From IMG/VR virus record IMGVR_UViG_2778261458_000002: a stretch of 47,331 nucleotides of DNA; one strand, 5' to 3'. Source of the stretch: a virus. Its lineage: Duplodnaviria; Heunggongvirae; Uroviricota; Caudoviricetes. The notes below the pieces were generated by a model that worked only from the letters and a program-made list of their open reading frames with translations, had not been told where the DNA came from and ran no database searches. The first letter of the stretch is position 1. Every line of letters begins with the position of its first letter. This document shows, piece by piece, positions 1-47,331 of the stretch. The translations under genes were made by a program, and so were the position numbers.

Positions 1-81
1 CCATTTGATCATATGACAAGATGTGTATCCACCTTAACTTAATGATTTTTACCAAAATCATTAGGGGATTCATCAGTACTG

Positions 82-106
82 AGCACCGCTTTACGGTGCT
101 TTTTTC
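82..106 (+). terminator. intrinsic terminator-like hairpin
   Basis: Inverted repeat AGCACCG/CGGTGCT with 5-nt loop followed by TTTTT, just upstream of the first tail gene. Confidence 0.45.
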
Positions 107-186
107 TGCGGGAATTATTCTTAAAGTTCCTGATGCTCCGGTTATGCCAATATCAGTAAACAATTTGCCTCCGTGGAGACGCAACA

Positions 187-1188
187 GTGTTACGTAAAAC
201 GCTTTTTGATGTTATATATCAGAATGTAAATATTACCGCTCATATGTCACCTGATGTTTTGTCAATGTCTTATACAGATAATGAAGATGGTCAGGTCGAT
301 GATATTTCTATTATATTAAAAAATGATGATGGGAAATGGTCTGGAGACTGGACACCTAAAAAGGGTGATTTTATTGATTTGAGCTTTAAGCCTATAAATC
401 AAATCGTCCTTGAGTGCGGGAAATTCCAGGTAGATGGCATAACTTGCTCTGGACCACCTTCTGTTGTTGAGGTAACTGCTGTTTCTGTTCCTGTTTCATC
501 AGGCATTAGACGTGATTTAAAAAGTAATGCATGGGAAAAAACAACTCTTAAAGATATAGCAACTTCTATAGCTAAATTAGCTAACCTTGAACTGTTGTTT
601 CTTATTGATGGTGATAGTAATCCATATTATGCGCGTGAAGATCAAATGGAGGAAAGCGATTTAAAATTTCTCCATCGACTTTGCCAGGATGAAGGGTTGT
701 CGTTAAAGGTCACTGATAGCCAATTAATAATATTTGCTCAAGAGATGTTTGAGCAAAAAGATCCTATCGCTACGCTTACGTTAGGTATTGATGAGATAAT
801 CAGATATAGCTTTAGCACACAATCTACAGATTTGTATAAAAGTTGCACGTGCAAATATCGCGTACCTAAAAAAAGAAAGTCGCTTTCGTATACTTGGGTA
901 GATCCATCCGTAGAAGAAGGGTCGAATCTTAAGATAAGAAAACTGGTAGCTAATTTAGATGAAGCAAAACGTAAGGCAAAGGCTGCTTTGCGGCTTAAAA
1001 ATAGATATCAAAATACAGGGGCTTTAGTATTGGTTGGAGACACCAGATTGGTAGCTGGTGTAACTATAAATCTGGACGGATTCGGTTCATTTTCTGGAAA
1101 ATATCTTATATCGAAAGCTGTGCATTCAATTGGGGCTAGTGGTTATACCACCTCGATTGATGTCCGAAGAGTAATTAATGGGTATTAA
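187..1188 (+). CDS. tail/baseplate hub protein, late control gene D family (P2 gpD / Mu gp44-like)
   Basis: 333-aa ORF, GTG start 8 nt after GGAG; first gene of a D-V-W-J-I-fibre cluster; family assigned from recalled sequence character and gene order. Confidence 0.65.
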   Translation: MLRKTLFDVIYQNVNITAHMSPDVLSMSYTDNEDGQVDDISIILKNDDGKWSGDWTPKKGDFIDLSFKPINQIVLECGKFQVDGITCSGPPSVVEVTAVSVPVSSGIRRDLKSNAWEKTTLKDIATSIAKLANLELLFLIDGDSNPYYAREDQMEESDLKFLHRLCQDEGLSLKVTDSQLIIFAQEMFEQKDPIATLTLGIDEIIRYSFSTQSTDLYKSCTCKYRVPKKRKSLSYTWVDPSVEEGSNLKIRKLVANLDEAKRKAKAALRLKNRYQNTGALVLVGDTRLVAGVTINLDGFGSFSGKYLISKAVHSIGASGYTTSIDVRRVINGY

Positions 1189-1190
1189 TT

Positions 1191-4317: not shown

Positions 4318-6339
4318 GTGAGTAAATTATTATTTACGATGACTGACGCCGGGCGTCAGGAGTTGGTTAATGCCAACAAAACAGGAACAAATAAAGTTGA
4401 GATTGTTTCTGTTGGTTTAGGTAGTAGATATTATGTCACGTCAACCTCACAAACAAATATAACAGACGAAATAAAACGACTTACCACAATAGGTGGCAAA
4501 GTTGTTTCCCCTGATACAATTCATGTAACGGCGAAGGATGATAGTAAAGATGAGTATGTTGTCCATACAATAGGATTGTATACAAATAAGGGAACGTTGT
4601 TTGCTGTATACTCGCAAGAACAAGCAATAATAAATAAAGCATCATCTACTATTGCTTTAATATCAAGTGACATAGCAATCAAGACTCTTGATACTAAAAA
4701 TATTACATTTGGTGATATTGAGTTTATTAATCCTCCCGCAACCGAAACTGTTGTTGGGGTAGCAAGATTTGCCAATGAACAAGAAATTGATGCAGGTACA
4801 GATGATTCCCTTGCTGTTTCAGCAAAGCGGCTTAAGCAAGCCATTGTGAAACATGAGCAATCACGTAATCATCCCGATGCAACTTTAACCTCAAAAGGCT
4901 TTGTTCAACTTAGCAGCGCCACCAATAGAACGTCTGAAACGCTTGCTGCGACGCCTAAGGCTGTTAAGGCAGCATATGACCTGGCTAATGGCAAATACAC
5001 CGCACAGGACGCTACTACAGCGCGAAAAGGGATTGTTCAGCTCAGTAGTGCCACTAACAGCACGTCTGAAGTGCTGGCCGCCACACCGAAAGCTGTCAAG
5101 GCTGCATATGACCTGGCTAACGGGAAGTATACAGCCCAGGATGCAACCACGGCTCAAAAAGGGATAGTTCAGCTCAGTAGCGACACCAACAGCACTTCTG
5201 AAACATTAGCTGCAACACCAAAAGCGGTTAAAGCTGCATACGATCTAGCAGCCGGAAAGGCACCATCCAGTCATACACATCCCTGGAATCAGATCACTGG
5301 TGTACCAACAGCTTCATTGACAGCGAAAGGCATCACTCAGCTCAGTAGTGCCACTAACAGCACGTCTGAAGTGCTGGCCGCCACACCGAAAGCTGTCAAG
5401 GCTGCATATGACCTGGCTAACGGGAAGTATACAGCCCAGGATGCAACCACGGCTCAAAAAGGGATAGTTCAGCTCAGTAGCGACACCAACAGCACTTCTG
5501 AAACATTAGCTGCAACACCAAAAGCGGTTAAAGCTGCATACGATCTAGCAGCCGGAAAGGCACCATCCAGTCATACACATCCCTGGAATCAGATCACTGG
5601 TGTACCAACAGCTTCATTGACAGCGAAAGGCATCACTCAGCTCAGTAGTGCCACTAACAGCACGTCTGAAGTGCTGGCCGCCACACCGAAAGCTGTCAAG
5701 GCTGCATATGATTTGGCTAATGGAAAGCAAGCGGCAGACGCTACGCTCACTGCTCTAGCGGCACTAGCTACAGCAGCAGATAAACTCCCTTATTTCACAG
5801 GTGTTGATCGTGCCGCGTTAACTGCATTGACAAGTGTTGGACGCGCCATTCTTGGTAAGACCAGTATTCAGAGCGTTCTTGATTACCTTGGTTTGGGAGA
5901 AGGCTCTGCATTACCTGTTGGTGTCCCTGTTCCGTGGCCTTCAGCTACGCCGCCAACAGGCTGGCTGAAATGCAATGGCGCTGCCTTTGATAAGGTTAAA
6001 TATCCCCGTCTTGCTACAGCATATCCATCAGGGAAACTACCTGATCTCCGCGGTGAGTTTATTCGTGGCTGGGATGATGGGCGCGGCATTGATACAGGGC
6101 GTGCTTTATTGAGTATTCAGAGTGATGAAGTCAGAAAGCTCGCATTAAAATACTGGGGGCCAGCTTCAAACAGTTCACCATCAAAAACATTTGCACTCAG
6201 CGACAGTGCCGGTGGCGGGTTGTACACGGATGGAATAAGTCAGGCAAGCGGTGGGATTATCAACGCTTTTCAGCTCCCTGGCGGTAACGAAACCCGCCCA
6301 CGAAATGTTGCATTTAACTATATCGTGAGGGCTGCATAA
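4318..6339 (+). CDS. tail fibre protein with tandem fibre repeats; constant part plus currently expressed variable C-terminal segment (Sv)
   Basis: 673-aa ORF; repeated 40-aa units (GIVQLSSATNSTSEVLAATPKAVKAAYDLA...); C-terminal collar-like receptor-binding domain; the inversion crossover site lies inside the gene at about 5877-5902. Confidence 0.85.
   Translation: MSKLLFTMTDAGRQELVNANKTGTNKVEIVSVGLGSRYYVTSTSQTNITDEIKRLTTIGGKVVSPDTIHVTAKDDSKDEYVVHTIGLYTNKGTLFAVYSQEQAIINKASSTIALISSDIAIKTLDTKNITFGDIEFINPPATETVVGVARFANEQEIDAGTDDSLAVSAKRLKQAIVKHEQSRNHPDATLTSKGFVQLSSATNRTSETLAATPKAVKAAYDLANGKYTAQDATTARKGIVQLSSATNSTSEVLAATPKAVKAAYDLANGKYTAQDATTAQKGIVQLSSDTNSTSETLAATPKAVKAAYDLAAGKAPSSHTHPWNQITGVPTASLTAKGITQLSSATNSTSEVLAATPKAVKAAYDLANGKYTAQDATTAQKGIVQLSSDTNSTSETLAATPKAVKAAYDLAAGKAPSSHTHPWNQITGVPTASLTAKGITQLSSATNSTSEVLAATPKAVKAAYDLANGKQAADATLTALAALATAADKLPYFTGVDRAALTALTSVGRAILGKTSIQSVLDYLGLGEGSALPVGVPVPWPSATPPTGWLKCNGAAFDKVKYPRLATAYPSGKLPDLRGEFIRGWDDGRGIDTGRALLSIQSDEVRKLALKYWGPASNSSPSKTFALSDSAGGGLYTDGISQASGGIINAFQLPGGNETRPRNVAFNYIVRAA
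5041..5711 (+). repeat. perfect 300-bp tandem duplication (2 full copies 5041-5340 and 5341-5640 plus 71-bp third partial copy) inside tail-fibre gene
   Basis: Lines 5041-5340 and 5341-5640 are base-for-base identical; 5641-5711 repeats the first 71 bp; in-frame (100 codons per unit). Confidence 0.9.
5877..5902 (-). other. inversion crossover site (left), Gin/Hin/Cin-type 26-bp site
   Basis: Reverse complement reads TTCTCCCAAACC-AA-GGTAATCAAGAA, resembling hix/gix-type sites; 15-nt core TTGGTTTGGGAGAAG is inverted-repeated at 7736-7750. Confidence 0.55.
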
Positions 6340-6941
6340 TGGATAATGCTGTATTAAATAGCGAGTTTATTGCCACGAAGGCGGGGAATATTACCGTCTA
6401 TAACTATGATAGTGAAACACGGGAATATATTTCCACATCAACTGAATATCTTGCTGTGGGGGTCGGTATTCCAGCATGTTCCTGTCTTGATGCACCTGGC
6501 ATACATAAGGTTGGTTATGCAATCTGTCGTTCTGTGAATTTAAATTCATGGAAATATGTGCCAGACCATCGCGGTGAAATCGTCTATAGCACAGAAACAG
6601 GAGAATCAAAAGAAATCACAGCTCCGGGTGATTACCCTGAAAATACAACCACTATCGCCCCTTTATCTCCATACGATAAATGGGATGGTGAGAAATGGGT
6701 GACCGATACTGAGGCACAGCATAGCGCCGCAGTCGAAGCGGCAGAAGCACAGCGCCAGTCACTGATTGATGCTGCTATGGCTTCCATCAGTCTGATTCAG
6801 CTGAAATTGCAGGCCGGACGTAAACTGACGCAGGCAGAAACAACCCGCCTTAACGCTGTGCTGGATTACATTGACGCGGTGACGGCAACAGATACCAGCA
6901 CCGCGCCGGATGTCATCTGGCCTGAACTGCCGGAGGCGTAG
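6339..6941 (+). CDS. tail fibre assembly protein (Tfa)
   Basis: 200-aa ORF with C-terminal LDYIDAVTATDTSTAPDVIWPELP motif characteristic of Tfa chaperones; start overlaps fibre stop. Confidence 0.75.
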   Translation: MDNAVLNSEFIATKAGNITVYNYDSETREYISTSTEYLAVGVGIPACSCLDAPGIHKVGYAICRSVNLNSWKYVPDHRGEIVYSTETGESKEITAPGDYPENTTTIAPLSPYDKWDGEKWVTDTEAQHSAAVEAAEAQRQSLIDAAMASISLIQLKLQAGRKLTQAETTRLNAVLDYIDAVTATDTSTAPDVIWPELPEA

Positions 6942-7365
6942 GCCATTCAATATCTGGCGCACCGGAAGTATCGACCAGTTCCAGTGCGTCCAGATAATCC
7001 AGCCACAGATTATATTGCGCCAGTTCCTCGCCTTTCAGACGACCAATAGCCGCTTTACCAGGCCATTGTTTACTGTTCATATAATCGTTGGCCTGATTAA
7101 TTAGTAGCTGTCTTTCTGATTCAGTAATTTCAATAAGTTCTTCATGCGTGGGTGGAGGAATATCTGCCCACGCAGGCAGCCCATCACCTCCGGCAATACG
7201 GATTTTTCCTTGTGGCGGTTCAGCCATAAATTCACTGATAATATTTTGATTCACCTCTTTAGCATCTGATAAATCCCATCCCTCTGATTTATATTTATCA
7301 ATCATATCCACAGGGAAAAAAGCATTATGCCTTGCGCTATAAACATATTCGTTCATATAAATCAC
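6913..7365 (-). CDS. alternative tail fibre assembly protein (Tfa')
   Basis: 150-aa minus-strand ORF with the same C-terminal Tfa motif (WLDYLDALELVDTSGAPDIEWPTPP); convergent and 3'-overlapping with tfa. Confidence 0.7.
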   Translation of the reverse strand: MIYMNEYVYSARHNAFFPVDMIDKYKSEGWDLSDAKEVNQNIISEFMAEPPQGKIRIAGGDGLPAWADIPPPTHEELIEITESERQLLINQANDYMNSKQWPGKAAIGRLKGEELAQYNLWLDYLDALELVDTSGAPDIEWPTPPAVQAR

Positions 7366-7376
7366 CCTTAATAAAA

Positions 7377-7745
7377 TTACTCACCAACAGCCCACCAACT
7401 GTAATTCATCGATACTGTGGAACTGGTTGATGCAGTTCTGTAAGCGGAATTAAAACCGGTTAATGTTGGACCTTCTGCGGACATAACGAATCCACGCCCT
7501 GCACCAAAAGGCGCACCGCCATCGCCAGAATGGGTAAGAATGGCGATATCCGCTTTTTTAGGGAAAGGGATAGGAAATGTAATCCTCATTGTTTGCGTCG
7601 ATAATTTCGGCATAGCCTCACCTCGACCATATTGCAGGATTTTCCCGTTGGGTAATTTCATCCATCCATCACCACTGGCAAAAGAGGCCATGTCCGGTAT
7701 CTGATTTTCCCCTGTCCCCACATTCCGTTTTGCCGCTTCTCCCAA
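7377..7745 (-). CDS. alternative tail-fibre C-terminal segment (Sv'), promoterless and start-less in this orientation
   Basis: Minus-strand reading frame runs from the right crossover site to a stop just before tfa'; after inversion it would fuse in frame to the fibre constant part (…DYLGLGE | AAKRNVGTG…). Confidence 0.55.
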
Positions 7746-7762
7746 ACCAACGTTTTAGTCTT
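7737..7762 (+). other. inversion crossover site (right)
   Basis: TTCTCCCAAACC-AA-CGTTTTAGTCTT, inverted copy of the site at 5877-5902, 55 bp upstream of the invertase start. Confidence 0.55.
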
Positions 7763-8515: not shown

Positions 8516-8559
8516 TTATGATTGTGGGTGTCTGGTTGGAAAGTGACCAGATATGGAAA

Positions 8560-8670
8560 CAAAAAGCCCGCAGATAAATCTGCGGGCTTCTTGCGACATC
8601 CACGGAAAACCAACAACTAACCATGGGCGCCTCGACAACTCCCATTATACGTTGGTTTTCCGTGGACGCA
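8560..8670 (-). ncRNA. candidate countertranscript (CopA/Inc-RNA-like) of the repA leader
   Basis: Minus-strand intrinsic terminator (AGCCCGCAGA-loop-TCTGCGGGCT then TTTTTGTTT, at 8561-8588) and a 16-bp stem (8599-8614 / 8651-8666) just upstream of the repA start; promoter not identified. Confidence 0.3.
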
Positions 8671-9599: not shown

Positions 9600-9780
9600 A
9601 CAAGCTAAATTAATTTTCTCTAAACCTGAACTCAGCAAAAATATCGCCTTTACAGGTATCAACTAATCAAGTTATCCACAGTTTTGATATGTATATGCAA
9701 ATGGTTTTTTATAATAGATGCACTAAACAAATAAATGCAAAATCACTTTCTTTTATTAAAACTTTCTTTATTTAACTTAC
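9600..9780. other. probable replication origin: AT-rich region with DnaA box
   Basis: Perfect DnaA box TTATCCACA at 9672-9680 inside an AT-rich stretch directly downstream of repA; followed by three GC-rich hairpins at 9826-9926. Confidence 0.5.
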
Positions 9781-10160
9781 GCAGGCTTTGCCTGTGAATA
9801 TGTTCGCCCTTGCAGCGAGCTAAAGCTCGCGCCGGTTCGAGTCGCTACGCTCAAATATACCTCCTCCGGCACTTGCCGGAGGCATGGAGTAGCCTGATCA
9901 TCCTTTTCGAAACGGCGCGTTTCGAACTATACAAAATCAATTTATATAAGGACGAAATAAGGCCTACGGCCGGGCTTTGCAGGAGGAAGGGGGAGCCTTA
10001 TCAATAAACGTCGATAAATACGCACACAGTAGCCATCAGAACGCGATAAAACGTAAGAAACATCATTTCCTATTAGACATAGAAAAGTTGTCTTATACGC
10101 AATGTAGTAAATTTCTATTGCCACATAGGAAAAGATTTCCTACCATCGTAGATATAATAA

Positions 10161-13802: not shown

Positions 13803-13826
13803 GCGCCCAAATCGGGCGCTTTGTTT
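13803..13826. terminator. intrinsic terminator shared by convergent genes
   Basis: GCGCCC-AAATC-GGGCGC hairpin followed by TTTGTTTT. Confidence 0.6.
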
Positions 13827-14995: not shown

Positions 14996-15183
14996 TTTGC
15001 ACCTCCCATCACTACTTTGGTTACGAGGGAGATTTTTGCGTCAGAAACAGTGTTATCGTTGCTGGCGATGCGCATAGCTTCGCGCTCGATGATTTCAGCC
15101 AGGCGGAATTTATCGGCGTATGAGGCTTTCTTGAGAAGGATCTTTACGAGGTTGACGTAATAGTCATGGGGTAAGTTTGTCAT
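14992..15183 (-). CDS. small protein in the position of P1 icd, upstream of ant
   Basis: 63-aa ORF whose stop overlaps the ant start (ATGA); assignment by position only. Confidence 0.35.
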   Translation of the reverse strand: MTNLPHDYYVNLVKILLKKASYADKFRLAEIIEREAMRIASNDNTVSDAKISLVTKVVMGGAK

Positions 15184-15189
15184 GGTGAT

Positions 15190-16856: not shown

Positions 16857-16862
16857 CGATTA

Positions 16863-17355: not shown

Positions 17356-17398
17356 GTGTATCCCCTCTTATATAAATCTATAAAACTATAATTATATA

Positions 17399-29404: not shown

Positions 29405-29434
29405 TGCAGATACCTGTTTGCTATTTATTTATAA

Positions 29435-31693: not shown

Positions 31694-31709
31694 TGTGTAG
31701 GAGGCGCTG

Positions 31710-34127: not shown

Positions 34128-34132
34128 ACCTC

Positions 34133-35989
34133 ATGGGCGAAACAGTATGGAGCACCGCTTTTTTCCGTGCGCTTCGCCCTAAATCACGGCTAACTGTTTC
34201 CGAATGGGCTGATAAGTATCGTCATGTAGCGCCGGGAACGTCTCCAGAGCCAGGGCCGTGGCGTACAAGCCGAGTGCCATATTTGCGTGAACCAATGGAT
34301 GTTATTGGTGACGCTGATACAGAAACAGTAGTGATGCAATGTAGCTCGCAAATTGGTAAATCCGAATTACAGCTAAATGTTATGGGTTACTTTGCAGATC
34401 AGGAGCCATCTCCTCAGTTGATGATTTATCCAACGGTAGAGGCGGCTGAGGCTTTTTCAAAAGAGCGTATTGATCCGACGTTCAAATATTCCCCTGGTTT
34501 GAAACACAAGCTGCATGAAGGGAAAGAGGGGCGCGGTGCAGCCAAAAAGTCCAGCACGACTATACGTATGAAGCATTACGCTGGTGGATATATAGCACTT
34601 GTTGGTGCTAATTCCCCAGCAGGTCTTGCATCCAGGCCAATTCGAATACTGTTAGCTGATGAGATTGATCGTTACGGTGTGACGCAGGAGGGCGACCCAC
34701 TAAAACTAGGTATTCAGCGTACTACCAACTTTCATAATCGTAAGAAAGTTTTTGTTTCTACTCCTGTTTTGGAGGAAACGAGCAAAATCCACAAGTGGTT
34801 TAAGCTCTCCGATCAGCGTTACTACCATGTTCCTTGCCCATGTTGTGGCACCATGCAGGTGATGAAATGGTCGCAAGTCAGATGGGATAAGAGCGATTCA
34901 GGTGAGGCGTTACCGGAAACGGCCAGATATGAGTGCTGTGAGTGCGGCGGGATTATGCGCGGATCTGGTAAACCAGACGTTGATTGGTTGGCGAAGGGGG
35001 TATGGATAGCTGAACATACTGGAGTTAAAGGTATTGTTGGTTTTCATATTAACAGTCTTTACTCCCCGTGGGTTGCATTGTCAGAGCTGGTTGAAGAATT
35101 TACGGAAGCAACCAGAAACCGCGATAAAAATGGATTAATGGAGTTTATTAACCTTAAGCTGGGTGAGCCATGGAAAGAGGATGCTAAAGACGATATAGAT
35201 CCTGAATACTTGTTGCAACGCAGAATAAGGTTTGAAGAGTTTTTACCAGATGATGTTTTATTGTTAAGTGCTGGTGTTGACGTACAGGACACGTATTTAG
35301 TTTGTGAATTGGTCGGTTGGGGAAAAGGTAAGGAGTCATGGGGGATAGAATATAAAATATTCCCAGGTGATCCCGCACAAGATGTTGTCTGGAAACAACT
35401 TGATGAATACTTACTCCGTAGCTGGTCATTCCGTGACGGTCGAAAATTACAGATTTCTTCTGTTTGTATTGACTCTGGTGGGCATTTTACGACAGAGGTA
35501 TATCGCTTTACTAAGCCGAGAGAATCAAGGCGAATATACTCTATCAGGGGGCGTGGTGGGGTAGGTTTACCATTTATAGGAAAGCCAAGTAATAATAACC
35601 GTGTGGGTGCTATGTTGTTTAATTTAGGGGTTGATGATGGTAAAGGGACCATCATGGCAAGAATTAAACTACATGATCCTGGTCCTGGTTATATGCATTT
35701 CCCATTAGATTCTGACAGAGGATATGATACCGAATACTTTAAAGGATTATTATCAGAGAAAAAAATATTTGAATATAAAAATGGGCAGACAAAAGAAAAG
35801 TGGGTGAAAGTCTACGAGCGTAACGAGCCTCTTGATTGCCGTAACTATGCAACTGCCGCGATGGAAATTCTGAACCCTAATTTTAACTGGCTTGCCGAAC
35901 AGGAAATGCGAGGTAATGTGTATGTGCAGAACTCGTCAGGTATACGTAGAAGACGCCGTAGAGTTATAAGTAAAGGCGTAACCATATAG
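34133..35989 (+). CDS. terminase large subunit (lambda gpA family)
   Basis: 618-aa ORF; N-terminal TVSEWADKYRHVAPGTSPEPGPWRTSRVPY resembles gpA; Walker-A-like SSQIGKS; size and position. Confidence 0.8.
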   Translation: MGETVWSTAFFRALRPKSRLTVSEWADKYRHVAPGTSPEPGPWRTSRVPYLREPMDVIGDADTETVVMQCSSQIGKSELQLNVMGYFADQEPSPQLMIYPTVEAAEAFSKERIDPTFKYSPGLKHKLHEGKEGRGAAKKSSTTIRMKHYAGGYIALVGANSPAGLASRPIRILLADEIDRYGVTQEGDPLKLGIQRTTNFHNRKKVFVSTPVLEETSKIHKWFKLSDQRYYHVPCPCCGTMQVMKWSQVRWDKSDSGEALPETARYECCECGGIMRGSGKPDVDWLAKGVWIAEHTGVKGIVGFHINSLYSPWVALSELVEEFTEATRNRDKNGLMEFINLKLGEPWKEDAKDDIDPEYLLQRRIRFEEFLPDDVLLLSAGVDVQDTYLVCELVGWGKGKESWGIEYKIFPGDPAQDVVWKQLDEYLLRSWSFRDGRKLQISSVCIDSGGHFTTEVYRFTKPRESRRIYSIRGRGGVGLPFIGKPSNNNRVGAMLFNLGVDDGKGTIMARIKLHDPGPGYMHFPLDSDRGYDTEYFKGLLSEKKIFEYKNGQTKEKWVKVYERNEPLDCRNYATAAMEILNPNFNWLAEQEMRGNVYVQNSSGIRRRRRRVISKGVTI

Positions 35990-36000
35990 AGGAAATATAA

Positions 36001-36240
36001 ATGAACAATGAAGCATTTTCTCTGACTGAAGCCAGAGAGATGTTATCTGTCTGGCGGGAAGCATATCGCGCTATTGCTATTGGCGGTCAGTCATATAAAT
36101 TTGGTACGCGGCAGTTAACTCGTGCGGATTTATCAGAAGTCAGAAAAGAGATGGATTACTGGCGTAATGAAGTAGAAAGATTATCAGCAGGTATACGCCG
36201 AGGCCCACGAATTAAACGAGTGGTGATAAGAGATTTATGA
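36001..36240 (+). CDS. head-tail joining protein (gpW-like)
   Basis: 79-aa ORF between terminase and portal, as in lambda. Confidence 0.45.
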   Translation: MNNEAFSLTEAREMLSVWREAYRAIAIGGQSYKFGTRQLTRADLSEVRKEMDYWRNEVERLSAGIRRGPRIKRVVIRDL

Positions 36241-37811
36241 ATATTCTTGATCGAGTTATTGCGCCGTTTTCACCTCAGAGGGCATTAAATCGAGCTTTGG
36301 CAAGAAAACGGTTAGAAGCACTTGAAGGTATTAATAACCTTGGATATTCACGTCATGGTGCAAGCACTCATAAAAAATCATTAAGGGGTTGGTTTAGTAA
36401 AGCTGGTTCTCCTGATGATGATATTGTTAAAAATATAGATAAATTGCGTGAGCGTTCTCGTGATCTCTTCATGGGAAACCCGCTATCGGTTGGCGCAATA
36501 AAAACTATCAGGACAAACGTTGTTGGTTCCGGTTTAAAACTAAATGCGAACATTGATGCCGATTTCTTGGGGATGACGCAGGAAGAAGCGCGAGCATGGG
36601 AAAAGCATGTTGAGCGTGAGTTTAGATTATGGGCTGATTCTCCAAATTGTGATGCATCAAGAATGTGTACTTTTGGACAATTGCAATCATTGGTTCAAAT
36701 ATCTGCTTTAACATCTGGCGATATATTTGCTGCGCTACCAGTTATTAAGCGTAAGGGTGTTATATATGATTTGTGCGTCTATTTAATTGAAGGTGATCGT
36801 GTTTGCAATCCAGAGGATCGTTTTATACCAAATCTTTACGGTGGCGTAGAGGTTGGTGAATTTAGCGAGCCTGTGGCGTACTGGGTTGCAAAACATCACC
36901 CAGCCGGGACTTCTGGTTTTGTAACCCGCAAGTGGGAACGTATTCCCGCATATGGGAGTAAAACAGGAAGAAGAAATATTCTGCATGTCATGCAGGATTT
37001 TGAAAGGCCTGGGCAACGCCGTGGCGTTCCTGTCCTTGCTCCTGTAATTGAAGCATTGAAGCAGTTAGGACGATACACCGATGCTGAATTGGTTGCTGCG
37101 GTTGTGTCAGGGATGTTTACTGTCTTTATTAAAACAGACGCTCCTGATGGACCAGTCGGTGAATCGGGTATCCCTCAGTACGAGCAGATCGATAACCATG
37201 ATGATAACACCCAAGAAATGGGGAATGGCTCCATAGTAAGTTTGGGTGAAGGTGAGTCGATAGATACAGCAAATCCCGGGCGACCAAATACGGCATTTGA
37301 TGGTTTTGTTGTCGCCATATGCCGTCAAATTGGGGCTGCTTTAGAACTCCCTTACGAACTCTTGGTAAAGCATTTTACAGCAAGTTATAGCGCAAGCAGG
37401 GCCGCATTACTTGAAGCCTGGAAAATGTTCCGTATGCGACGTGACTGGATGGTTCAGTCATTTTGCCAACCGATCTATGAGGAATGGTTGGCCGAAGCCG
37501 TTGCTAAAGGTCGTGTTATTGCCCCTGGTTTTTTTTATGGGCCTGAATATCGCGCTGCATGGAGTGGCGCTCAATGGTATGGCCCATCACAAGGCCAATT
37601 AGATCCCCTTAAAGAAGTCAAAGCTGCAAAACTGCGTGTTGAGGAAACATTCTCTACCCGTGAAAAGGAAGCGGCTGAAATGTCAGGTCTTAACTGGGAA
37701 GAAACCGCACAAATTTGTGGCAGAGAAGAGAATGCTCGCCGTGAGTTGGGGCTGATTACGCCTCCTGTTTCTGAGGTAAATGAACAAAATATGGAGACAG
37801 ATGATGCCTAA
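36237..37811 (+). CDS. portal protein (lambda gpB family)
   Basis: 524-aa ORF, ATGA-coupled; position after gpW-like gene and before protease. Confidence 0.75.
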   Translation: MNILDRVIAPFSPQRALNRALARKRLEALEGINNLGYSRHGASTHKKSLRGWFSKAGSPDDDIVKNIDKLRERSRDLFMGNPLSVGAIKTIRTNVVGSGLKLNANIDADFLGMTQEEARAWEKHVEREFRLWADSPNCDASRMCTFGQLQSLVQISALTSGDIFAALPVIKRKGVIYDLCVYLIEGDRVCNPEDRFIPNLYGGVEVGEFSEPVAYWVAKHHPAGTSGFVTRKWERIPAYGSKTGRRNILHVMQDFERPGQRRGVPVLAPVIEALKQLGRYTDAELVAAVVSGMFTVFIKTDAPDGPVGESGIPQYEQIDNHDDNTQEMGNGSIVSLGEGESIDTANPGRPNTAFDGFVVAICRQIGAALELPYELLVKHFTASYSASRAALLEAWKMFRMRRDWMVQSFCQPIYEEWLAEAVAKGRVIAPGFFYGPEYRAAWSGAQWYGPSQGQLDPLKEVKAAKLRVEETFSTREKEAAEMSGLNWEETAQICGREENARRELGLITPPVSEVNEQNMETDDA

Positions 37812-38868
37812 TTGGTGGGAAATAAAAAATAGCACGGGTGAAGATGACTCTCCGGCTGAACTTTTAATCTACGGATATATTGGCGAATTTGATGAGGTTT
37901 CTTCTTCTGACATAGTTAATAAATTAAAGGATATATCATCAAATGCTATCAACGTAAAAATTAATAGTTATGGTGGTTCTGTTTTTACTGCTCAAGCTAT
38001 TCTTTCTTCATTAAAACGTCATAAGGCTAATATTACTGTTTATATTGATGGTATTGCTGCATCGGCTGCAACCATTATTGCAATGGCAGGTGATAAAGTT
38101 GTTATCCCATCTAATGCTATGATGATGATCCATAATCCGTGGACATTTGCTGCTGGTGATGCGGATGAACTACGTGATATTGCTGAGATGATGGATAAGA
38201 TACGAGATAGTATTTTATCTGCATATAAGGAGAAAACAGGGCTTTCTGAGGATAAATTAATTGAACTAATGGATCAGGAAACATGGCTAAATGCAGAAGA
38301 GGCTGTAGAGCTTGGATTTGCTGACGAAGTTGAAAAACCAATGCGCTTATCCGCTTCTATAAATGAAGGGATGCTTTCGCTCAATGGAATAACTTTTGAA
38401 GCATCAAGGTTTTCAAAATTACCTGATTCGCTCGCAAAGTTGCCACAAAATAAAAATGAATTATCTACTGAATTAAATGAACAAAATGAGGACGATGTTG
38501 TGACTCTTGATGAATTAAAAAATAAACATCCAGAATTATACAATCAGGTTTTTAATGCTGGTAAAGACGAGGGCGTTAAATCAGAACGCGAGCGCATTGA
38601 AACAATCGAGAATAGCGTAATTCCAGGTCATGACGACCTGGTTAAGAATGCAAAGTTCAAAACGGGAATTTCTGCGGCTGAACTTGCTTTAGAAATTATG
38701 AATGCAGAGCGAGCGCGTAACAAAAACTTTCTTAATCAACGGCAAGAAGACGCAAATGAGGTGAATGATTCAGTTGATGTTAATCAACCAGAAAACAACG
38801 GCGATAAACAAGCTGAAGTAGTAAAAAATGTTATTGGGTCAGTATTTAAAAACCGCGATAAAAATTAA
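37780..38868 (+). CDS. prohead protease, ClpP-like (S14), with C-terminal scaffold-like region
   Basis: 362-aa ORF; KINSYGGSVFTAQAI ... GIAASAATIIAMAGD ... MMMIHNPW matches ClpP-type Ser/His arrangement; start could be ATG 37801/37804. Confidence 0.7.
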   Translation: MNKIWRQMMPNWWEIKNSTGEDDSPAELLIYGYIGEFDEVSSSDIVNKLKDISSNAINVKINSYGGSVFTAQAILSSLKRHKANITVYIDGIAASAATIIAMAGDKVVIPSNAMMMIHNPWTFAAGDADELRDIAEMMDKIRDSILSAYKEKTGLSEDKLIELMDQETWLNAEEAVELGFADEVEKPMRLSASINEGMLSLNGITFEASRFSKLPDSLAKLPQNKNELSTELNEQNEDDVVTLDELKNKHPELYNQVFNAGKDEGVKSERERIETIENSVIPGHDDLVKNAKFKTGISAAELALEIMNAERARNKNFLNQRQEDANEVNDSVDVNQPENNGDKQAEVVKNVIGSVFKNRDKN

Positions 38869-38877
38869 GGTGAGTTT

Positions 38878-39261
38878 ATGCGAGAGTCTTTTTCATTTGA
38901 ACCAGATAATCTGATTATTTCTGGTGGTATGCCAGCAATTACAACAAGTATTAAACTTGCCAGCGGTAAAGTAAATCGAGGTGAGTTGCTTGCTTTTGTC
39001 AGTATTGATCAGACAACAAATGTTGTCACTGTGGCACCAATAAATCTCTCTGGTGAGGGGGTGGCAAAAGAACCGTATTGTATCGCTCAACATAGTATTG
39101 ATGCGACTGATTCAGCGCAAGTTGGAACAGCATGGCTGACCGGAATGTTCAATGCACATGCGGTTATCCTTCCTGAATCAGCAAAGATTGCCGATGTATA
39201 TCTGGCTTGCCGGAAGGTTGGGATATTCCTTAATACCGCACAACAAAATCCATCTGCATAA
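38878..39261 (+). CDS. head decoration protein-like
   Basis: 127-aa ORF between protease and major capsid gene (lambda D position). Confidence 0.45.
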   Translation: MRESFSFEPDNLIISGGMPAITTSIKLASGKVNRGELLAFVSIDQTTNVVTVAPINLSGEGVAKEPYCIAQHSIDATDSAQVGTAWLTGMFNAHAVILPESAKIADVYLACRKVGIFLNTAQQNPSA

Positions 39262-39281
39262 TATAAAGAGGTCGTATTTTT

Positions 39282-40325
39282 ATGCCGAATATTGATATTT
39301 TTGAACGACGTACAATGCTTGAGCCTGTTATTCAGAATTTCAAGGCTCGTCGTTTTCTTCTTCGTACCTTTTTTCCTGGTGTTCAGACCTTTAATACAAA
39401 GAAAGTTGATCTGGATTTTGTTCGCGGTGGCCGTACTATGGCTCCGTTTGTTGGTAAAGGTTTTGGCTCAAAAACCGTTGAGCGACGCGGCTTTGTAACG
39501 AGAACTCTGGAGCCACCACTTGTTGCACCTGATTTGGTAACAACAGCCGAGCTGCTTTTAAACAGGCTTCCGGGTGAGAATATTTACAACGCAAAATCGC
39601 CAGCAGAACGAGCCGCCGAGCAATTAGGTAAAGATTTGCTTGAGCTTGATGAAATGGTTAACCGCCGTGAAGAATGGATGTGTGCACAAGTCTTGTTTAC
39701 GGGGCAGGTTGATATTGTTGGTGAAGGAGTGGATGACACAGTTTATTTTTGGCCTGAAGAGGAAGGAGATAAACCATATCTTGAACTGACAGGTGATGAT
39801 TTATGGAGTGCAGCAAAATCAGATCCGTTGGTTAATGTTCGCAACTGGAGACGTCGGGTATCACTAACTTCAGGTTTTACACCTCGTGTTGCCGTAATGG
39901 GCGCAAAAGTTGTTGATGCCTTCGTTAAAAATGAAGCAGTAACTAAATATCTTGAGAATCGCCGAAAAGAGCTTGGGTATATTGAGCCTAAGGAGTTAGA
40001 AGAAGGCGTAACTCATTATGGCAATCTTGAAGGTGTCGATTTTTATGGTTACGACGAACTTATTCGCAATGATAAAACAGGAAAACCAGAACCATTAGTA
40101 CCGGAAGATAAGATCCTCTTTGGCTCTCCTGGTCGAGGAACGATGCTGTATGGTGCTGTAGAGCTTGTAGATGACGCCGAAAAGACTCTAACGATTGTTG
40201 AGTCACCGCGAGTTCCAGACACCTGGGTAACTCGTAAGCCGGCTGGCCGTTATGTTGCCATGAAGTCATCTCCACTGCCTAATCCAGGTGTGGCTGATGC
40301 CTATCTGGTGGCTAAGGTGGTTTAA
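39282..40325 (+). CDS. major capsid protein (lambda gpE-like family)
   Basis: 347-aa ORF, size and position of gpE; FLLRTFFPGVQTF near N-terminus parallels gpE FLRLFFRESYPF. Confidence 0.7.
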   Translation: MPNIDIFERRTMLEPVIQNFKARRFLLRTFFPGVQTFNTKKVDLDFVRGGRTMAPFVGKGFGSKTVERRGFVTRTLEPPLVAPDLVTTAELLLNRLPGENIYNAKSPAERAAEQLGKDLLELDEMVNRREEWMCAQVLFTGQVDIVGEGVDDTVYFWPEEEGDKPYLELTGDDLWSAAKSDPLVNVRNWRRRVSLTSGFTPRVAVMGAKVVDAFVKNEAVTKYLENRRKELGYIEPKELEEGVTHYGNLEGVDFYGYDELIRNDKTGKPEPLVPEDKILFGSPGRGTMLYGAVELVDDAEKTLTIVESPRVPDTWVTRKPAGRYVAMKSSPLPNPGVADAYLVAKVV

Positions 40326-40718
40326 ATGGCCAGACTGATTAAAAATATTGATACGATAAGCCACGGCTCGCTAAAAGCGGGCCGTTTGCTTAATGGGCTA
40401 ATGGATAACTCCAGAATTGCTGAACTGATTGCGTCAGGACATGCTATTGCCACCGAAGAGGATGGGGATTTGGCATCGGCCGGGGGCTATGATGCTGCTA
40501 AGTTAGCTTTTGAGCATGGATACGCATCTGCTGTTAATGATGCTGTGGACGCGGGGTTGATTACGCGAACGGAGGCGGGTAGCTGTGTATTCGAGGTTGA
40601 GTTTGAGGATGATGGCGGCAATGAGGAAACGGTTGCTGATGATTCATCTGAATCTGTAGCTACTTCTGATACCAGTAATGCGAAAAAATCAACGCAAAAA
40701 AAAGGTAATAAGAAGTAA
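40326..40718 (+). CDS. head-associated protein (FI-like position), acidic C-terminus
   Basis: 130-aa ORF immediately after capsid gene. Confidence 0.3.
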   Translation: MARLIKNIDTISHGSLKAGRLLNGLMDNSRIAELIASGHAIATEEDGDLASAGGYDAAKLAFEHGYASAVNDAVDAGLITRTEAGSCVFEVEFEDDGGNEETVADDSSESVATSDTSNAKKSTQKKGNKK

Positions 40719-41062
40719 TGAACTCCTTCAAAGAGGTTATAGCGCAAGATATTTCTGCAATATTCCTCAATGAAAAAGAGTTTGCCGATACATATAACAT
40801 AGACGGCAAGGATATCCTTGCCGTTATTGATACAGACCTTATTCATGAGCGGAATAAACGCTCATATGCTGAGTTTGCAGAGGGAATAAATCAGGGGCAA
40901 ATAATATTATTTGTTTCAAGAAAAGATTTTCCTGTTCTCCCAGTCAAAGACCAGTCAATGAAAATCAACGGTAAAAATTATATTGTTGATGAAGTATCAG
41001 ATAATGTTGGTGTATTGGAAATAACTCTCACTGTTAATACTAACAGAGGAATGCCGATTTGA
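40718..41062 (+). CDS. head completion / head-tail connector protein (FII-like position)
   Basis: 114-aa ORF, coupled to neighbours. Confidence 0.3.
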   Translation: MNSFKEVIAQDISAIFLNEKEFADTYNIDGKDILAVIDTDLIHERNKRSYAEFAEGINQGQIILFVSRKDFPVLPVKDQSMKINGKNYIVDEVSDNVGVLEITLTVNTNRGMPI

Positions 41063-41544
41063 TTAATCTTTTGATAGATGCAATAAAAAATCGGTTGGAA
41101 CATGAGGTTTTCCATGATTTATTAGTGCAGGGACCTCCTTATGATGAAACAGACAGCGATATTAAATTGTTTGTTCCAACAATATTTAAAGGGTACTTGC
41201 CTCCTAAATCACAACCATCTCCAGATAAACCGCCAGAATTTCCTCATGTGATTATCAGGCCCACGGAAGGAGGAATGCAGCCTGAAACGGATGAAGTTAA
41301 GGTTAAGTTTCTTCTAGGTGGTTTTTGTGAGGACCATACTGGATATGAATGGGTAATGGCTCTTCTTGAAAGGATGATGTTTCATTTTCAGGAGAAGCCT
41401 TTACTTGAAGAGAAATTTCTTTTTCAGGGCGATATCAGATGGCGAATGTTTGATGATCAACCGTATCCATATTGGATAACGGAGGCAACTGGAACGTGGC
41501 TAGTATTAAAACCTCAGAATATTCAGTCTCAGGAGTTTATCTAA
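41059..41544 (+). CDS. neck / tail completion protein candidate
   Basis: 161-aa ORF between head and sheath genes. Confidence 0.3.
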   Translation: MINLLIDAIKNRLEHEVFHDLLVQGPPYDETDSDIKLFVPTIFKGYLPPKSQPSPDKPPEFPHVIIRPTEGGMQPETDEVKVKFLLGGFCEDHTGYEWVMALLERMMFHFQEKPLLEEKFLFQGDIRWRMFDDQPYPYWITEATGTWLVLKPQNIQSQEFI

Positions 41545-41835
41545 ATGGCTAATAAGAAAAGTAGTAAAGAAAATATAGATAAGAAGGAAGATGTTGATCA
41601 AACATTTGTGTATATAGGTCCAACAATCCCTCAAATCTCACTTTTGAAGCATAAACTATTCAAGAATGGTTTATCTCCAGAGTGTGAAAAATTAATTTCA
41701 TATATTCCTGGTGCAAAGTGTTTGTTTGTGGCAACCAGTGACTTTGCAGATGCAGAAAAAAGACTTTCTGATAAAACCAGCGTTGAGTATGTAATGTACT
41801 CTCGTGTTTCTTCTTCTATCATGGAGATTAAATAA
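41545..41835 (+). CDS. hypothetical structural protein
   Basis: 96-aa ORF immediately upstream of sheath gene. Confidence 0.3.
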   Translation: MANKKSSKENIDKKEDVDQTFVYIGPTIPQISLLKHKLFKNGLSPECEKLISYIPGAKCLFVATSDFADAEKRLSDKTSVEYVMYSRVSSSIMEIK

Positions 41836-44276: not shown

Positions 44277-44281
44277 TACTA

Positions 44282-47074
44282 ATGGCCAGCAATAAGAACT
44301 TTAAGCTGGCTTTTGAAATTGGCGGCAAAGTTGCCGCCTCTCTCCCCAAAAGTTTTACTACAGCTAATCAGGCTGTTGCTAAATTAAATGCCGAGCTTGC
44401 TGGATTAACGAAAGAACATGGGGAAATTCAAAAGCTACAATCTGTAAAAGTAAAGGTTGGACAGACTGCCCTCGAATATCATAAAGCTGCCGCTCGCGTT
44501 GAAGAGTTACAGAAGCAAATAAAAAACACGGCCAATCCAACCAGAGCGATGCTTCGTGACTTTGAGAAGGCAAAAACACATTCATCGAATTTACGAGCAT
44601 CACTACGTTCTCAGCGTGAAGAACTGGCCGCTTTAAAGTCTGCCTATCAGGGAGCTGATACATCTGCCAGAGCTTTGGCCTCAAGAGAGAAAGAACTTAA
44701 AGCCAGCATTGATCGTAATCGTGAGGCTCAGGCCCGTAGCGTTGAGCAGGTTAACCGCTACAGAACGGCTTTGGCTTTAGCCAGAGCAAATGTTCAGCAA
44801 GTGAAAAAACAGCAGGAGGAACTTAACCGGGCATTAGAAAAACAACGTATTGATAAAATTAACAGCTATAAAAATGCGTTGGCTGAAGCACGGAAAAATG
44901 TTCTTGCAGTAAAACGTGCTCAGGAGGAGTTAAACCGCGCGTTGGAAAGGCAGCGTGAATTGAAGCGAGAGCATCTTGGTGAGGCAAAGAGTCAACTTGT
45001 AAGGTCAGGATTACAAACTGGTGCTGTAGCGGCTGGTGCATTTGCTGCTGCTAACAATGCAGCAAATTTCAATCGTGAAAACAAAATGATTGGTCTTACG
45101 GCAGATATGAAGCCGGAAGAAGTTCAGGCGATGGGGCAGGCGATGCTTGTTACCGGAACGGCTACCAACCAGTTTGCATCTGATATTCAGGCCGCTCAGG
45201 GTTTTCTCGTCGCTGCTGGGCAGGATTATAAAGAGGCTCAGGCGAATCTACTAACTATTGGGCGAACAGCTACAGCTACTGGCTCTGATATCCTCGATGT
45301 CTCGAAAGCATCATTTACATTAAGTGACTCATTGAAGATTGATCCATCTCAAATGAAGTCTGCAATGGGGATTCTGGTTCAGGCAGGGAAAGAGGGAAAC
45401 TTTGAATTTAAAGATATGGCCAAAAATCTTCCTGTGCTTGGTGCCCAGTTCCAGGCATTAAAAATGGGAGGTAAAGAAGCCGCCGCGACGATGGGGGCAG
45501 CTTTGCAGATAGCTCGCAAAGGTGCTGCAACTTCGGATGAGGCTGCTAATAATATGAACAACTTTTTGGCGAAAATACTTTCCCCTGAAACGCTAAAAAA
45601 AGCAAAGAAAAATTTCGGTGTAGATTTATATAAAATTGTCACAACAGCGCAGAAAAAAGGGAAGAATCCATTCGAAGCTGCAATGCATTCTGTCATGAAA
45701 ATGACTAAGAACGGAGATCAGAAGTTACTTGGTGAGCTATTTGGCGATATGCAGGTTCAGAACTTTGTTCGTCCGATGATTCAAAACTGGAAGGAATACC
45801 AGAGAATCAAAGCAACATCTCTTGGTGCTGGAAGTGCTGTTATTGACCGCGATTTTGCCAACATAACGAAAGACAATGCGGAGCGATTGAAACAATTACG
45901 TATTCAGGCTAGCAATGCATCATTAAGTTTTGGTCAGGCCTTGCAACCTGCTTTGAATGCCGCGCTTAGTGTTTTGGTTCCGCTGATTACAAAAATTAGT
46001 GAATTTGTAGCTAACAACCCCAATTTTGTGTCTCAGATTGTGATGGCGGCAGGTGCGTTTCTAACCATGAAAAGTGTGGTTATAGCGTGTAGGGTAGCTA
46101 TGCTGGCTTTATCTGTAGCGACAAAGCTAACACCCTTCGGGTGGATTCAGATGGCTATATCTGCGCTGGTTGCCGCAGGAATATTGCTCTATCAGAACTG
46201 GGATAAGATCAGAGATTATGCTGTCAGAGTTTGGCCTTCTGTTAAGGAATATACAGTTAAATCGTTTGAAGCTATAAAAAACTTTATCTTAAACTTTGAT
46301 CTCAATGGATGGATTATATCTATGTTTGGTAAAGCATGGGATTATCTTTCCAACATAAACTGGAGTTCGGCAGGAGTAAGAATTTACAGTACATTAATTA
46401 GTGCTTTTAAATGGATGTCTCCGCTTCCGTTCTTAATTAAAGCATTTAAACTTACAACAAATTACCTTTCTGGCATTAACTGGAGCGAAACAGGAAAGAA
46501 AATCATAGATACACTGGTGTCTGTTTTTATGCGTTTTTCACCAGTTGGACTCTTTATAAGAGCATTCCAATCTGTAACGGCTTATTTATCTGGAATAAAC
46601 TGGAGTGAGTCAGGTGCAAAAATAATTGAGACGTTAATCACTGGGATAAAATCAAAAGCAAATGCTTTAATTAATGAAGTGAAAGGCGTTTTTTCTTCTG
46701 TACGTGAGTATTTACCGTTCTCTGACGCGAAAAAAGGTCCATTCACACAGCTAACAAAGTCAGGGGGGGCAATAATGACTACTCTGGCATCAGGTGTTAG
46801 CAGGAATAACAGCTTACAGAATGCAATAGCAACCAAGTTCGGGCAATCAAATTTATCACCTCACGGGATATCTGCCGCCGGGACTTCTGGAACTCGCCAG
46901 AACGTTAACGCTGTGACTGGTGGAATAACCTATTCACCTGTAATCAATCTTCCGACTGGTTCACCAAAGGAAACTGAGGCGGCAGCTAAAAGAGCATTAG
47001 ATGCGGGATATTCTGATTTTGAGAAGAAATTGAGTGCTCATATGTTCCAACAACGGAGATTAAGTTTTGGATGA
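44282..47074 (+). CDS. tail tape measure protein
   Basis: 930-aa ORF; coiled-coil-rich N-terminal third, hydrophobic central helices, repeated W-containing motifs (INWSSAG, INWSETG, INWSESG). Confidence 0.85.
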   Translation: MASNKNFKLAFEIGGKVAASLPKSFTTANQAVAKLNAELAGLTKEHGEIQKLQSVKVKVGQTALEYHKAAARVEELQKQIKNTANPTRAMLRDFEKAKTHSSNLRASLRSQREELAALKSAYQGADTSARALASREKELKASIDRNREAQARSVEQVNRYRTALALARANVQQVKKQQEELNRALEKQRIDKINSYKNALAEARKNVLAVKRAQEELNRALERQRELKREHLGEAKSQLVRSGLQTGAVAAGAFAAANNAANFNRENKMIGLTADMKPEEVQAMGQAMLVTGTATNQFASDIQAAQGFLVAAGQDYKEAQANLLTIGRTATATGSDILDVSKASFTLSDSLKIDPSQMKSAMGILVQAGKEGNFEFKDMAKNLPVLGAQFQALKMGGKEAAATMGAALQIARKGAATSDEAANNMNNFLAKILSPETLKKAKKNFGVDLYKIVTTAQKKGKNPFEAAMHSVMKMTKNGDQKLLGELFGDMQVQNFVRPMIQNWKEYQRIKATSLGAGSAVIDRDFANITKDNAERLKQLRIQASNASLSFGQALQPALNAALSVLVPLITKISEFVANNPNFVSQIVMAAGAFLTMKSVVIACRVAMLALSVATKLTPFGWIQMAISALVAAGILLYQNWDKIRDYAVRVWPSVKEYTVKSFEAIKNFILNFDLNGWIISMFGKAWDYLSNINWSSAGVRIYSTLISAFKWMSPLPFLIKAFKLTTNYLSGINWSETGKKIIDTLVSVFMRFSPVGLFIRAFQSVTAYLSGINWSESGAKIIETLITGIKSKANALINEVKGVFSSVREYLPFSDAKKGPFTQLTKSGGAIMTTLASGVSRNNSLQNAIATKFGQSNLSPHGISAAGTSGTRQNVNAVTGGITYSPVINLPTGSPKETEAAAKRALDAGYSDFEKKLSAHMFQQRRLSFG

Positions 47075-47077
47075 TTA

Positions 47078-47179
47078 TAGAACGGTTCAAGGGGACTCAT
47101 GGGATAGTATCGCGTTAAAGTTGTATGGTAATGAGTACCTGTCTTATCTTCTTATTGATGCTAATACTGAGCACTGAGA
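47078..47179 (+). pseudogene. truncated LysM-like tail protein X fragment
   Basis: Frame without start codon encodes RTVQGDSWDSIALKLYGNEYLSYLLIDAN then stop, resembling the N-terminal half of P2 gpX; an ATG at 47071 is in a different frame. Confidence 0.25.
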
Positions 47180-47331
47180 GATCCCCTCATAATTTCCCCA
47201 AAGCGTAACCATGTGTGAATAAATTTTGAGCTAGTAGGGTTGCAGCCACGAGTAAGTCTTCCCTTGTTATTGTGTAGCCAGAATGCCGCAAAACTTCCAT
47301 GCCTAAGCGAACTGTTGAGAGTACGTTTCGA

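Follow-up and report, generated by a model that had tools for sequence, protein, structure and literature searches.

The 47,331 nt stretch of viral DNA held as IMG/VR record IMGVR_UViG_2778261458_000002 (Caudoviricetes), referred to here in its full length as the window, carries genes for a contractile-tailed virion together with genes for plasmid replication and partition. Its content raises the question of how such an element is maintained in its host and whether this copy can still form particles. Most probably (probability about 0.88), the window belongs to a conserved family of temperate Enterobacteriaceae myoviruses whose lysogenic state is a circular plasmid, and this particular copy is predicted to be virion-defective. 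A preliminary description had proposed a phage-plasmid on the basis of gene content, and that proposal is supported by the gene modules, by circular plasmid relatives and by near-identical phage genomes.

Circular relatives and the ends of the window

Dozens of complete circular plasmids of 46–52 kb, from Escherichia coli, E. fergusonii, E. albertii and Klebsiella aerogenes, are 97–99 % identical to the window over 60–99 % of each window half; they include the 48,488 bp plasmid of E. coli ATCC 25922 (NZ_CP009073.1). Equally close are the Yersinia phages vB_YpM_39/41/44 (OR545053-55), which entered the databases as phages, their host given as Y. pestis EV76-CN. Compared with the ~48 kb plasmids (NZ_CP009073.1, p48 NZ_CP023368.1, pDETEC34 CP116126) and these phages together, nucleotide identity is 97–99 % over ~80–99 % of the window, gene order is the same throughout, RepA is identical, and the head, tail, lysis, partition and repressor genes are the same. 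The window differs from them in carrying IS10 within a gpX-like tail gene, in its fibre tips, antirepressor and helix-turn-helix (HTH) allele, and in small accessory genes of two variable regions (12.2–16.3 kb and 28.4–29.5 kb). Window positions 28961–29684 were compared with a Yersinia phage gene of which they might have been a frameshifted copy; the sequences proved unrelated, and the stretch is assigned to the variable region.

The head module (the packaging-to-sheath segment) is found in 72 of 5426 complete E. coli genomes, with 84 of its 85 places on plasmid records. The repA-ori segment is found in 71 of the same 5426 genomes and all 82 of its places are on plasmid records, none being chromosomal. 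Therefore, the replicon and the virion genes travel together and are essentially always extrachromosomal. Both statements of the preliminary description on recombination genes were confirmed: no integrase, and a small serine invertase as sole recombinase. Apart from the Hin/Gin-type invertase gene, the window contains no complete recombinase gene; a scan of every gene-sized open reading frame (ORF), except two of 150–200 aa lying antisense to annotated genes, gave no match to tyrosine or large serine recombinases, and no integrase is present in the Prokaryotic Genome Annotation Pipeline (PGAP) annotation of two close relatives.

Draft contig NTNJ01000033.1 (GCA_002463995.1; 47,332 bp) coincides with the window except for a single base, and there is thus no flanking sequence to inspect. 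Each end lies inside the insertion sequence (IS) IS10, and the contig is read as having broken there because IS10 is repeated in the source genome. The contig itself holds 77 nt of IS10 at its left end, a length that fits an assembly k-mer. Both IS10 pieces are on the same strand, in the order and orientation expected of a single insertion. IS10 duplicates nine base pairs of its target, and an identical 9-mer, TACTGAGCA, adjoins each piece. With IS10 and one 9-mer removed in silico, the repaired junction agrees with plasmid NZ_CP023368.1, which has no interruption here, at 388 of 389 positions. The exact IS10/gpX junction is absent from the genome contig collection, the complete E. coli genomes and the PLSDB records. 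The simplest reading of these ends is a circle of ~48.4 kb, made up of the 47,331 bases of the window and ~1.1 kb of missing IS10 interior.

Virion genes and the split gpX-like gene

The preliminary description had credited the element with a complete virion module. This holds for the family and fails for this copy, in which IS10 cuts a 72-aa gpX-like gene after codon 36, a stop codon following immediately. The repaired ORF matches Pfam Phage_tail_X at E=2e-4, ~1 bit under the cut-off, and the gene is uninterrupted in phage OR545054 (14496–14714). All other structural and lysis ORFs are equal in length to their counterparts in OR545054, the gpX-like gene being the sole exception. Gene X of phage P2 is an essential tail gene. 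Because the gpX-like protein is truncated to 36 residues and its P2 relative is essential, this copy is predicted not to assemble functional tails, and its plasmid would persist without infectious particles.

Insertions of mobile elements are also seen in relatives: IS1203 lies inside the large terminase gene of NZ_CP173475.1, IS3-family, IS21 and Tn5403 elements are present in further records (CP099184.1, NZ_CP032259.1, NZ_CP098182.1), and some family records are shortened to 31–39 kb. Inactivation of individual family copies seems to be frequent.

The gene order given earlier, running as a circle from repressor through lysis, head and tail genes to repA and the partition locus, is borne out by domain searches apart from a Q-like gene (see below). 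A mosaic of lambda-type head, Mu/P2-type tail and IncFII-superfamily RepA was also proposed, and it holds at the family level. The head resembles that of lambda in its gpA-type terminase, lambda-family portal, ClpP-type protease (Pfam CLP_protease), gpE-type capsid, a decoration-like protein with a weak gpD match (Pfam HDPD E=0.002, below cut-off) and a DUF6148 protein at the position of gpW; the likeness is one of families, not of sequence. The nearest capsid outside the family in the phage collection, that of Vibrio phage Rostov 7, is only ~46 % identical. Four head–tail joining genes follow the major capsid gene, and an FII-type tube gene (Pfam Phage_tube) lies downstream of the sheath.

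The tail gene families are those of P2 (FII, E/E′, D, V, U, W, J, I, H and G), and they form a single continuous run that ends in an invertible segment and an invertase, as is the gene order in Mu. Near the end of the E-type chaperone gene a slippery TTTTTTG (44111–44117) precedes an overlapping −1 extension frame that is open to 44276; by its sequence this overlap appears to be the conserved programmed frameshift of tail chaperones, and P2 E/E′ has a matching arrangement. In a lytic cycle, the lambda-type terminase would fill a gpE-type head, which would then join the Mu-ordered, P2-type contractile tail.

G+C content is ~38–44 % in the head, tail and baseplate genes (1–5000 and 35000–47000) against 45–50 % in the early, lysis and fibre-tip regions (19000–32000), a contrast consistent with a mosaic origin. 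The OR545054 record begins at the base that matches window position ~32574, inside a 556-bp gap upstream of the packaging genes, and the starts of the remaining two Yersinia phage records seem to lie close by; this point may be where the lambda-type terminase has its cos site. In the stretch leading up to the terminase genes (29697–33576), three proteins resemble the ParB N-terminal (Srx-like) domain, of which only the third passes the Pfam cut-off.

The fibre gene, which contains a 300-bp tandem repeat (5037–5727), appears to be built for switching. In-silico inversion of the segment between its inverted repeats swaps the last 150 fibre residues for a 124-residue tip and yields an intact 647-aa fibre; the two forms have 523 N-terminal residues in common. 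The same inversion aligns the second assembly-protein gene with the fibre. The Hin-type invertase would thus switch the fibre between two tips, and each tip would have a chaperone of its own.

Plasmid maintenance, immunity and the early region

The replicon had been called IncFII-type. RepA belongs to the IncFII_repA superfamily and passes the NCBIfam model RepA_IncFII_LM (NF040977; 232 bits against a cut-off of 70), but fails the strict incFII equivalog TIGR03474 (78.8 bits against 446.9), and it is only 31–40 % identical over 29–45 % of its length to RepA of true IncFII (F-type) plasmids. The name is right for the superfamily and the design of the replicon, and does not hold as an incompatibility group. 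Beyond this family, the closest RepA (37 % identical) is on an ordinary Klebsiella plasmid bearing a type IV secretion system. Within it, RepA is 100 % identical to the Yersinia phage proteins, and those three phages are the only ones in the phage collection that carry it. The start codon is most likely the ATG at 8682, in agreement with the PGAP model in NZ_CP023368.1 and with the start of the Pfam match.

The surroundings of repA likewise resemble the R1/R100 design in part, with an antisense-RNA-like element in the leader and a DnaA box and AT-rich region 3′ of the gene. The strand opposite the leader folds into two hairpins, a long one and one of 16 bp with a U-run after it (−69.5 kcal/mol; z=−9.3 against shuffled sequences), and it has no match to Rfam CopA at E<=5; its position and structure suggest an antisense control RNA. 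The DnaA box, TTATCCACA, lies ~140 bp downstream of repA and is followed by the AT-rich stretch; oriR of R1 is likewise placed downstream of repA, and 9660–9790 is the probable replication origin. The replicon differs from that of R1/R100 in lacking, besides the CopA match and the TIGR03474 pass, a CopB-like gene: directly upstream stands the invertase gene, which ends at 8371, ~180 bp before the antisense element. Nor was a tap leader peptide found, the small ORFs of the leader either overrunning the repA start or sitting in the wrong frame. In the plasmid state, RepA of this IncFII/IncL-M family would start replication just 3′ of its own gene, and the two-hairpin RNA would throttle RepA synthesis.

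For partition, a ParA/ParG pair had been named, of which ParA is upheld by Pfam; ParG is approached in architecture only. ParA matches the ParF structure 4dzz weakly but specifically (E=3e-4) and NCBIfam ParA_partition at E=4e-22, under the cut-off of that model. In the AlphaFold2 model of the 82-aa partner, residues 1–40 are disordered and two helices follow; the sequence has a strand-helix-helix pattern, and the protein is consistent with a ribbon-helix-helix centromere-binding protein. A small Walker-type ParA and a partner with a flexible N-terminus and a ribbon-helix-helix-like C-terminus recall ParF/ParG of TP228 (type Ib), with the difference that the partner lacks homology to ParG by sequence. 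The AT-rich repeats upstream of parA and between parA and the partner gene are candidate binding sites, through which the two proteins would segregate plasmid copies.

The toxin–antitoxin system of the preliminary description is present as a Gp49/HigB-like toxin and an HTH antitoxin by Pfam, homologues of which are annotated in relatives as RelE/ParE or HigB2. A second locus, which belongs to the ryfA RNA family, ends in a terminator and is conserved in relatives. Homologues of ryfA encode the small toxin TimP, and this locus may be a second addiction locus of the type I toxin kind. The staggered ORFs of period 59 at 16.5–16.9 kb were considered as an iteron array; this was rejected, the region being the ryfA-family RNA. 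The HigB/HigA-like pair, and possibly the ryfA-type locus, would kill cells that lose the element.

The immunity module that had been described is represented by a CI-like repressor and its operators. The repressor gene faces the early operon across 21-bp repeats, which contain the palindrome ACCACATATCGTGGT and span 19363–19505, and in lysogeny the repressor would act on these operators to silence the rightward early operon. Its match to Peptidase_S24 stays under the threshold of Pfam, and the customary G-(D/N)-S-M motif cannot be made out. A search for LexA boxes found none near the immunity region, the one match in the window being at chance level inside a structural gene. The preliminary description had missed an isrK/C4 antirepressor module on the minus strand. 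Immunity region immI of phage P1 is laid out as C4 RNA, small ORF and antirepressor. Since the CI-like protein has no clear serine motif and the immunity region has no LexA box nearby, induction may depend on the antirepressor; the immI-like unit (isrK, C4, small ORF and ORF6N/Rha antirepressor) would then be the route of derepression.

A Q-like gene had been placed between the early and lysis genes. No Pfam or PHROG match to a Q-like antiterminator or other late activator was obtained for the ORFs of 19522–24404 and 26543–29684, and no phage replication gene was recognised in the early operon by Pfam or PHROGs. The lysis module is present as described, with two holins (Phage_holin_8 and Phage_holin_3_7), a glycoside hydrolase family 108 (GH108) endolysin (Glyco_hydro_108 with PG_binding_3) and an Rz-like spanin recognised by PHROG. 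At 24198–24384, 186 nt resemble the pmgT region of P1 with an identity of 91–93 %, and short stretches near them match Stx-converting and lambdoid phages, which indicates exchange with other E. coli phages. Beyond the lysis genes, the tRNA with CAT anticodon is called Met by ARAGORN, and its homologue in NZ_CP023368.1 is called tRNA-Ile by PGAP; a 136-aa ORF that overlaps it is probably spurious. Small unknown genes follow the MT-A70 gene within the rightward block 27031..32429.

Features of the window, by position (strand: +, −, or a full stop where none applies)
Feature	Position	Strand	Basis or remark
IS10, last 76 nt; contig break	1..76	+	100 % identical to end of IS10 copy in EF120459.1
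Target-site duplication, 9 bp, left copy	77..85	.	identical 9-mer at 47165-47173
gpX-like gene, C-terminal half	86..197	+	repaired ORF 72 aa
gpD-like hub	187-1188	+	Pfam Phage_GPD
gpV spike	1191-1811	+	Pfam Phage_base_V
gpU-like	1808-2275	+	Pfam Phage_P2_GpU
gpW/gp25-like	2272-2592	+	Pfam GPW_gp25, weak, below cut-off
gpJ	2589-3713	+	Pfam Baseplate_J
gpI	3706-4287	+	Pfam Tail_P2_I
Tail fibre, 673 aa in present orientation	4318..6339	+	Pfam Phage_fiber_2 repeats and Collar domain
Invertible segment, 1.87 kb	5885..7753	.	18-nt inverted repeats 5885-5902, 7736-7753; Caudo_TAP/Gp53-like_C domains found in segment
Tfa	6339-6941	+	in invertible segment (domains as above)
Alternative Tfa	6913-7365	−	in invertible segment (domains as above)
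Alternative fibre C-terminus	7377-7745	−	in invertible segment (domains as above)
Hin/Gin-type small serine invertase, 184 aa	7817..8371	+	Pfam Resolvase E=4e-44, HTH_7
Candidate antisense countertranscript (CopA/Inc-RNA-like) in repA leader	8557..8670	−	folding
repA, replication initiator, 282 aa	8682..9530	+	Pfam IncFII_repA (PF02387) E=1e-43
Probable origin	9660..9790	.	sequence inspection; DnaA box 9672-9680, then AT-rich stretch
HigB/Gp49-like toxin	10992-11339	+	Pfam Gp49 E=7e-23
HTH antitoxin	11339-11638	+	Pfam HTH_3
P1 immI-like module	13826..15421	−	Rfam and Pfam
Antirepressor	13826-14995	−	Pfam ORF6N and Phage_pRha
63-aa ORF	14992-15183	−	between C4 and antirepressor
C4 antisense RNA	15237-15324	−	Rfam 84.3 bits, gathering score 45
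isrK RNA	15348-15421	−	Rfam 65 bits, above gathering score
ryfA-family RNA with 40-aa hydrophobic ORF (MKKYCMCIFIVVTGALF...)	16588..16884	+	Rfam ryfA 141.8 bits, gathering score 80
Partition locus	17107..18180	−	domains and repeats
Ribbon-helix-helix-like ParA partner, 82 aa	17107-17355	−	AlphaFold2 model
AT-rich repeats, 24-32 nt, three copies	17368-17399, 18076-18107, 18149-18180	.	repeat search
ParA, 217 aa	17399-18052	−	Pfam CbiA/ParA/MipZ
CI-like repressor	18670-19326	−	Pfam HTH_3 E=5e-11
Operator repeats	19363-19381, 19448-19505	−	21-bp repeats, 2.8 copies, 97 % matching
Early operon with unknown proteins, DUF1064	19522..24404	+	Pfam, PHROGs
Ref-like RecA-dependent nuclease	20758-21162	+	Pfam, PHROGs
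DUF3560	22042-23109	+	Pfam, PHROGs
MarR-like	23166-23468	+	Pfam, PHROGs
Lysis cassette (holin, second holin, GH108 endolysin, Rz-like spanin)	24893..26375	+	Pfam, PHROG
tRNA, CAT anticodon, 3′ of lysis genes	26669..26744	+	ARAGORN, Rfam tRNA
MT-A70 methyltransferase	27031-27618	+	Pfam
ParB/Srx-like	29697-30320	+	ParB_N ~2 bits under Pfam cut-off
ParB_N-like with methyltransferase	30320-31693	+	ParB_N ~2 bits under Pfam cut-off
PHROG 'minor tail protein'	31710-32429	+	PHROGs
Packaging and head block, including ParB_N protein and head–tail joining genes	32986..41835	+	Pfam, PHROGs
TerS	33576-34127	+	domain search
TerL, lambda gpA type	34133-35989	+	Pfam GpA_ATPase/GpA_nuclease
DUF6148 small protein, position of lambda gpW	36001-36240	+	Pfam
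Lambda-family portal	36237-37811	+	Pfam Phage_portal_2
Major capsid, gpE family	39282-40325	+	Pfam Phage_cap_E
Tail sheath	41835-43298	+	PHROG tail sheath E=8e-96
E-type tail chaperone	43846-44127	+	Pfam Phage_TAC_7
Tape measure	44282-47074	+	Pfam PhageMin_Tail
gpX-like gene, N-terminal 36 codons, ending in right duplication copy	47067..47173	+	frame meets stop at IS10 boundary
Target-site duplication, 9 bp, right copy	47165..47173	.	identical 9-mer at 77-85
IS10, first 158 nt; contig break	47174..47331	+	99.3 % identical to IS10 of EF120459.1

Competing explanations and the place of the family

The ends of the window would also be accounted for if the element were a cointegrate, held in the chromosome or in a larger plasmid between two IS10 copies after IS10–IS10 recombination. 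A contig that stops in IS10 on both sides points to several IS10 copies in the source genome, a cointegrate formed in this way should present identical plasmid-side junctions and the same 9-bp repeat, and one of the 85 E. coli places of the head module is on a chromosome record. This arrangement is nevertheless improbable, given that the other 84 places and all 82 places of repA-ori are on plasmid records, that the contig plus one IS10 comes to ~48.4 kb, within the 46–52 kb of the family, and that the order and orientation of the IS10 fragments fit a single insertion.

More improbable still is that the family as a whole is a decaying phage remnant, by now a purely cryptic plasmid whose phage genes no longer function as a set. 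The IS10 in a conserved tail gene of this copy would agree with decay, as would the IS1203 in the terminase gene of NZ_CP173475.1, the IS3, IS21 and Tn5403 elements of other members and the records of 31–39 kb. However, almost identical genomes have been submitted as those of phages, with Y. pestis EV76 as host, every structural ORF besides gpX is of full length, and ~25 kb of virion genes are 97–99 % conserved across hosts, which argues for ongoing selection.

Several points weigh against the preferred reading of the window as a defective copy of a family of temperate phage-plasmids. The contig ends inside IS10 on both sides, so that closure of the circle is only inferred. No paper was found on how Yersinia phages vB_YpM_39/41/44 were isolated. 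The lytic programme is only partly explained, no late-gene activator or dedicated lytic replication genes being recognised. The proposed roles of the antisense RNA, the origin, the centromere and the type I toxin follow from position and structure, and the ParA partner matches neither ParG nor any other protein by sequence in Pfam, NCBIfam or PDB. Finally, the effect of gpX-like loss on tail assembly is extrapolated from gene X of P2.

Among well-studied phages, P1 and P7 offer the closest functional parallel, as plasmid prophages with replication, partition and addiction functions. They share with the window the immI order of C4 RNA, small ORF and antirepressor, an invertible fibre segment with a Cin/Hin-type invertase, a Ref-like nuclease and the 186-nt pmgT-like stretch. 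The element in the window differs in being about half the size, in its lambda gpA/gpE-type head, in having an initiator of the IncFII/L-M family and in lacking a Cre/lox-type tyrosine recombinase. P1 packages by headful from pac and uses a replication initiator of another family. The window does not belong to either of the P1_1 and P1_2 types.

Comparison with known phage-plasmids, which the preliminary description had called for, gave close relatives of ~48 kb and no place in the current classification. Ten well-defined types are recognised, including P1_1, P1_2, N15, the SSU5 supergroup, AB_1 and cp32 (PMC12977533, Table 1); judged by size, tail and the descriptions listed there, the 48-kb myovirus-tailed family fits none of them. 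Membership of pSLy3 was considered and rejected, as this type falls within the siphovirus-like SSU5 supergroup, and pSLy3 and other SSU5-related types measure 85–125 kb (PMC12977533). Outside the ~48 kb family, phage records contain nothing close to its RepA or capsid. The novelty implied by the preliminary description does not stand, near-identical plasmids and phages being already in public databases. The element is known at the sequence level and ordinary for its kind, and one relative, pDETEC34 (CP116126), is listed in print under 'phage-plasmid' (PMC10100714, Table S10). That label was the sole result of a literature search, which returned no paper characterising the ~48 kb family.

It can be put forward only tentatively that the family is a distinct, uncharacterised phage-plasmid type beyond the ten recognised, possibly without a phage replication module and with induction led by the antirepressor rather than by self-cleavage of the repressor. 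If it does lack such a module, a single antisense-controlled RepA of the IncFII/L-M type would serve both plasmid maintenance and lytic amplification. The family occurs in ~1.3 % of complete E. coli genomes, yet is missing from the defined types in current typing tools; E. fergusonii, E. albertii and K. aerogenes have it as well, and Y. pestis is the host recorded for phage isolates. The copy in the window, at the predicted strength of its tail defect, illustrates how IS elements may lock a phage-plasmid into the plasmid state through one small tail gene.

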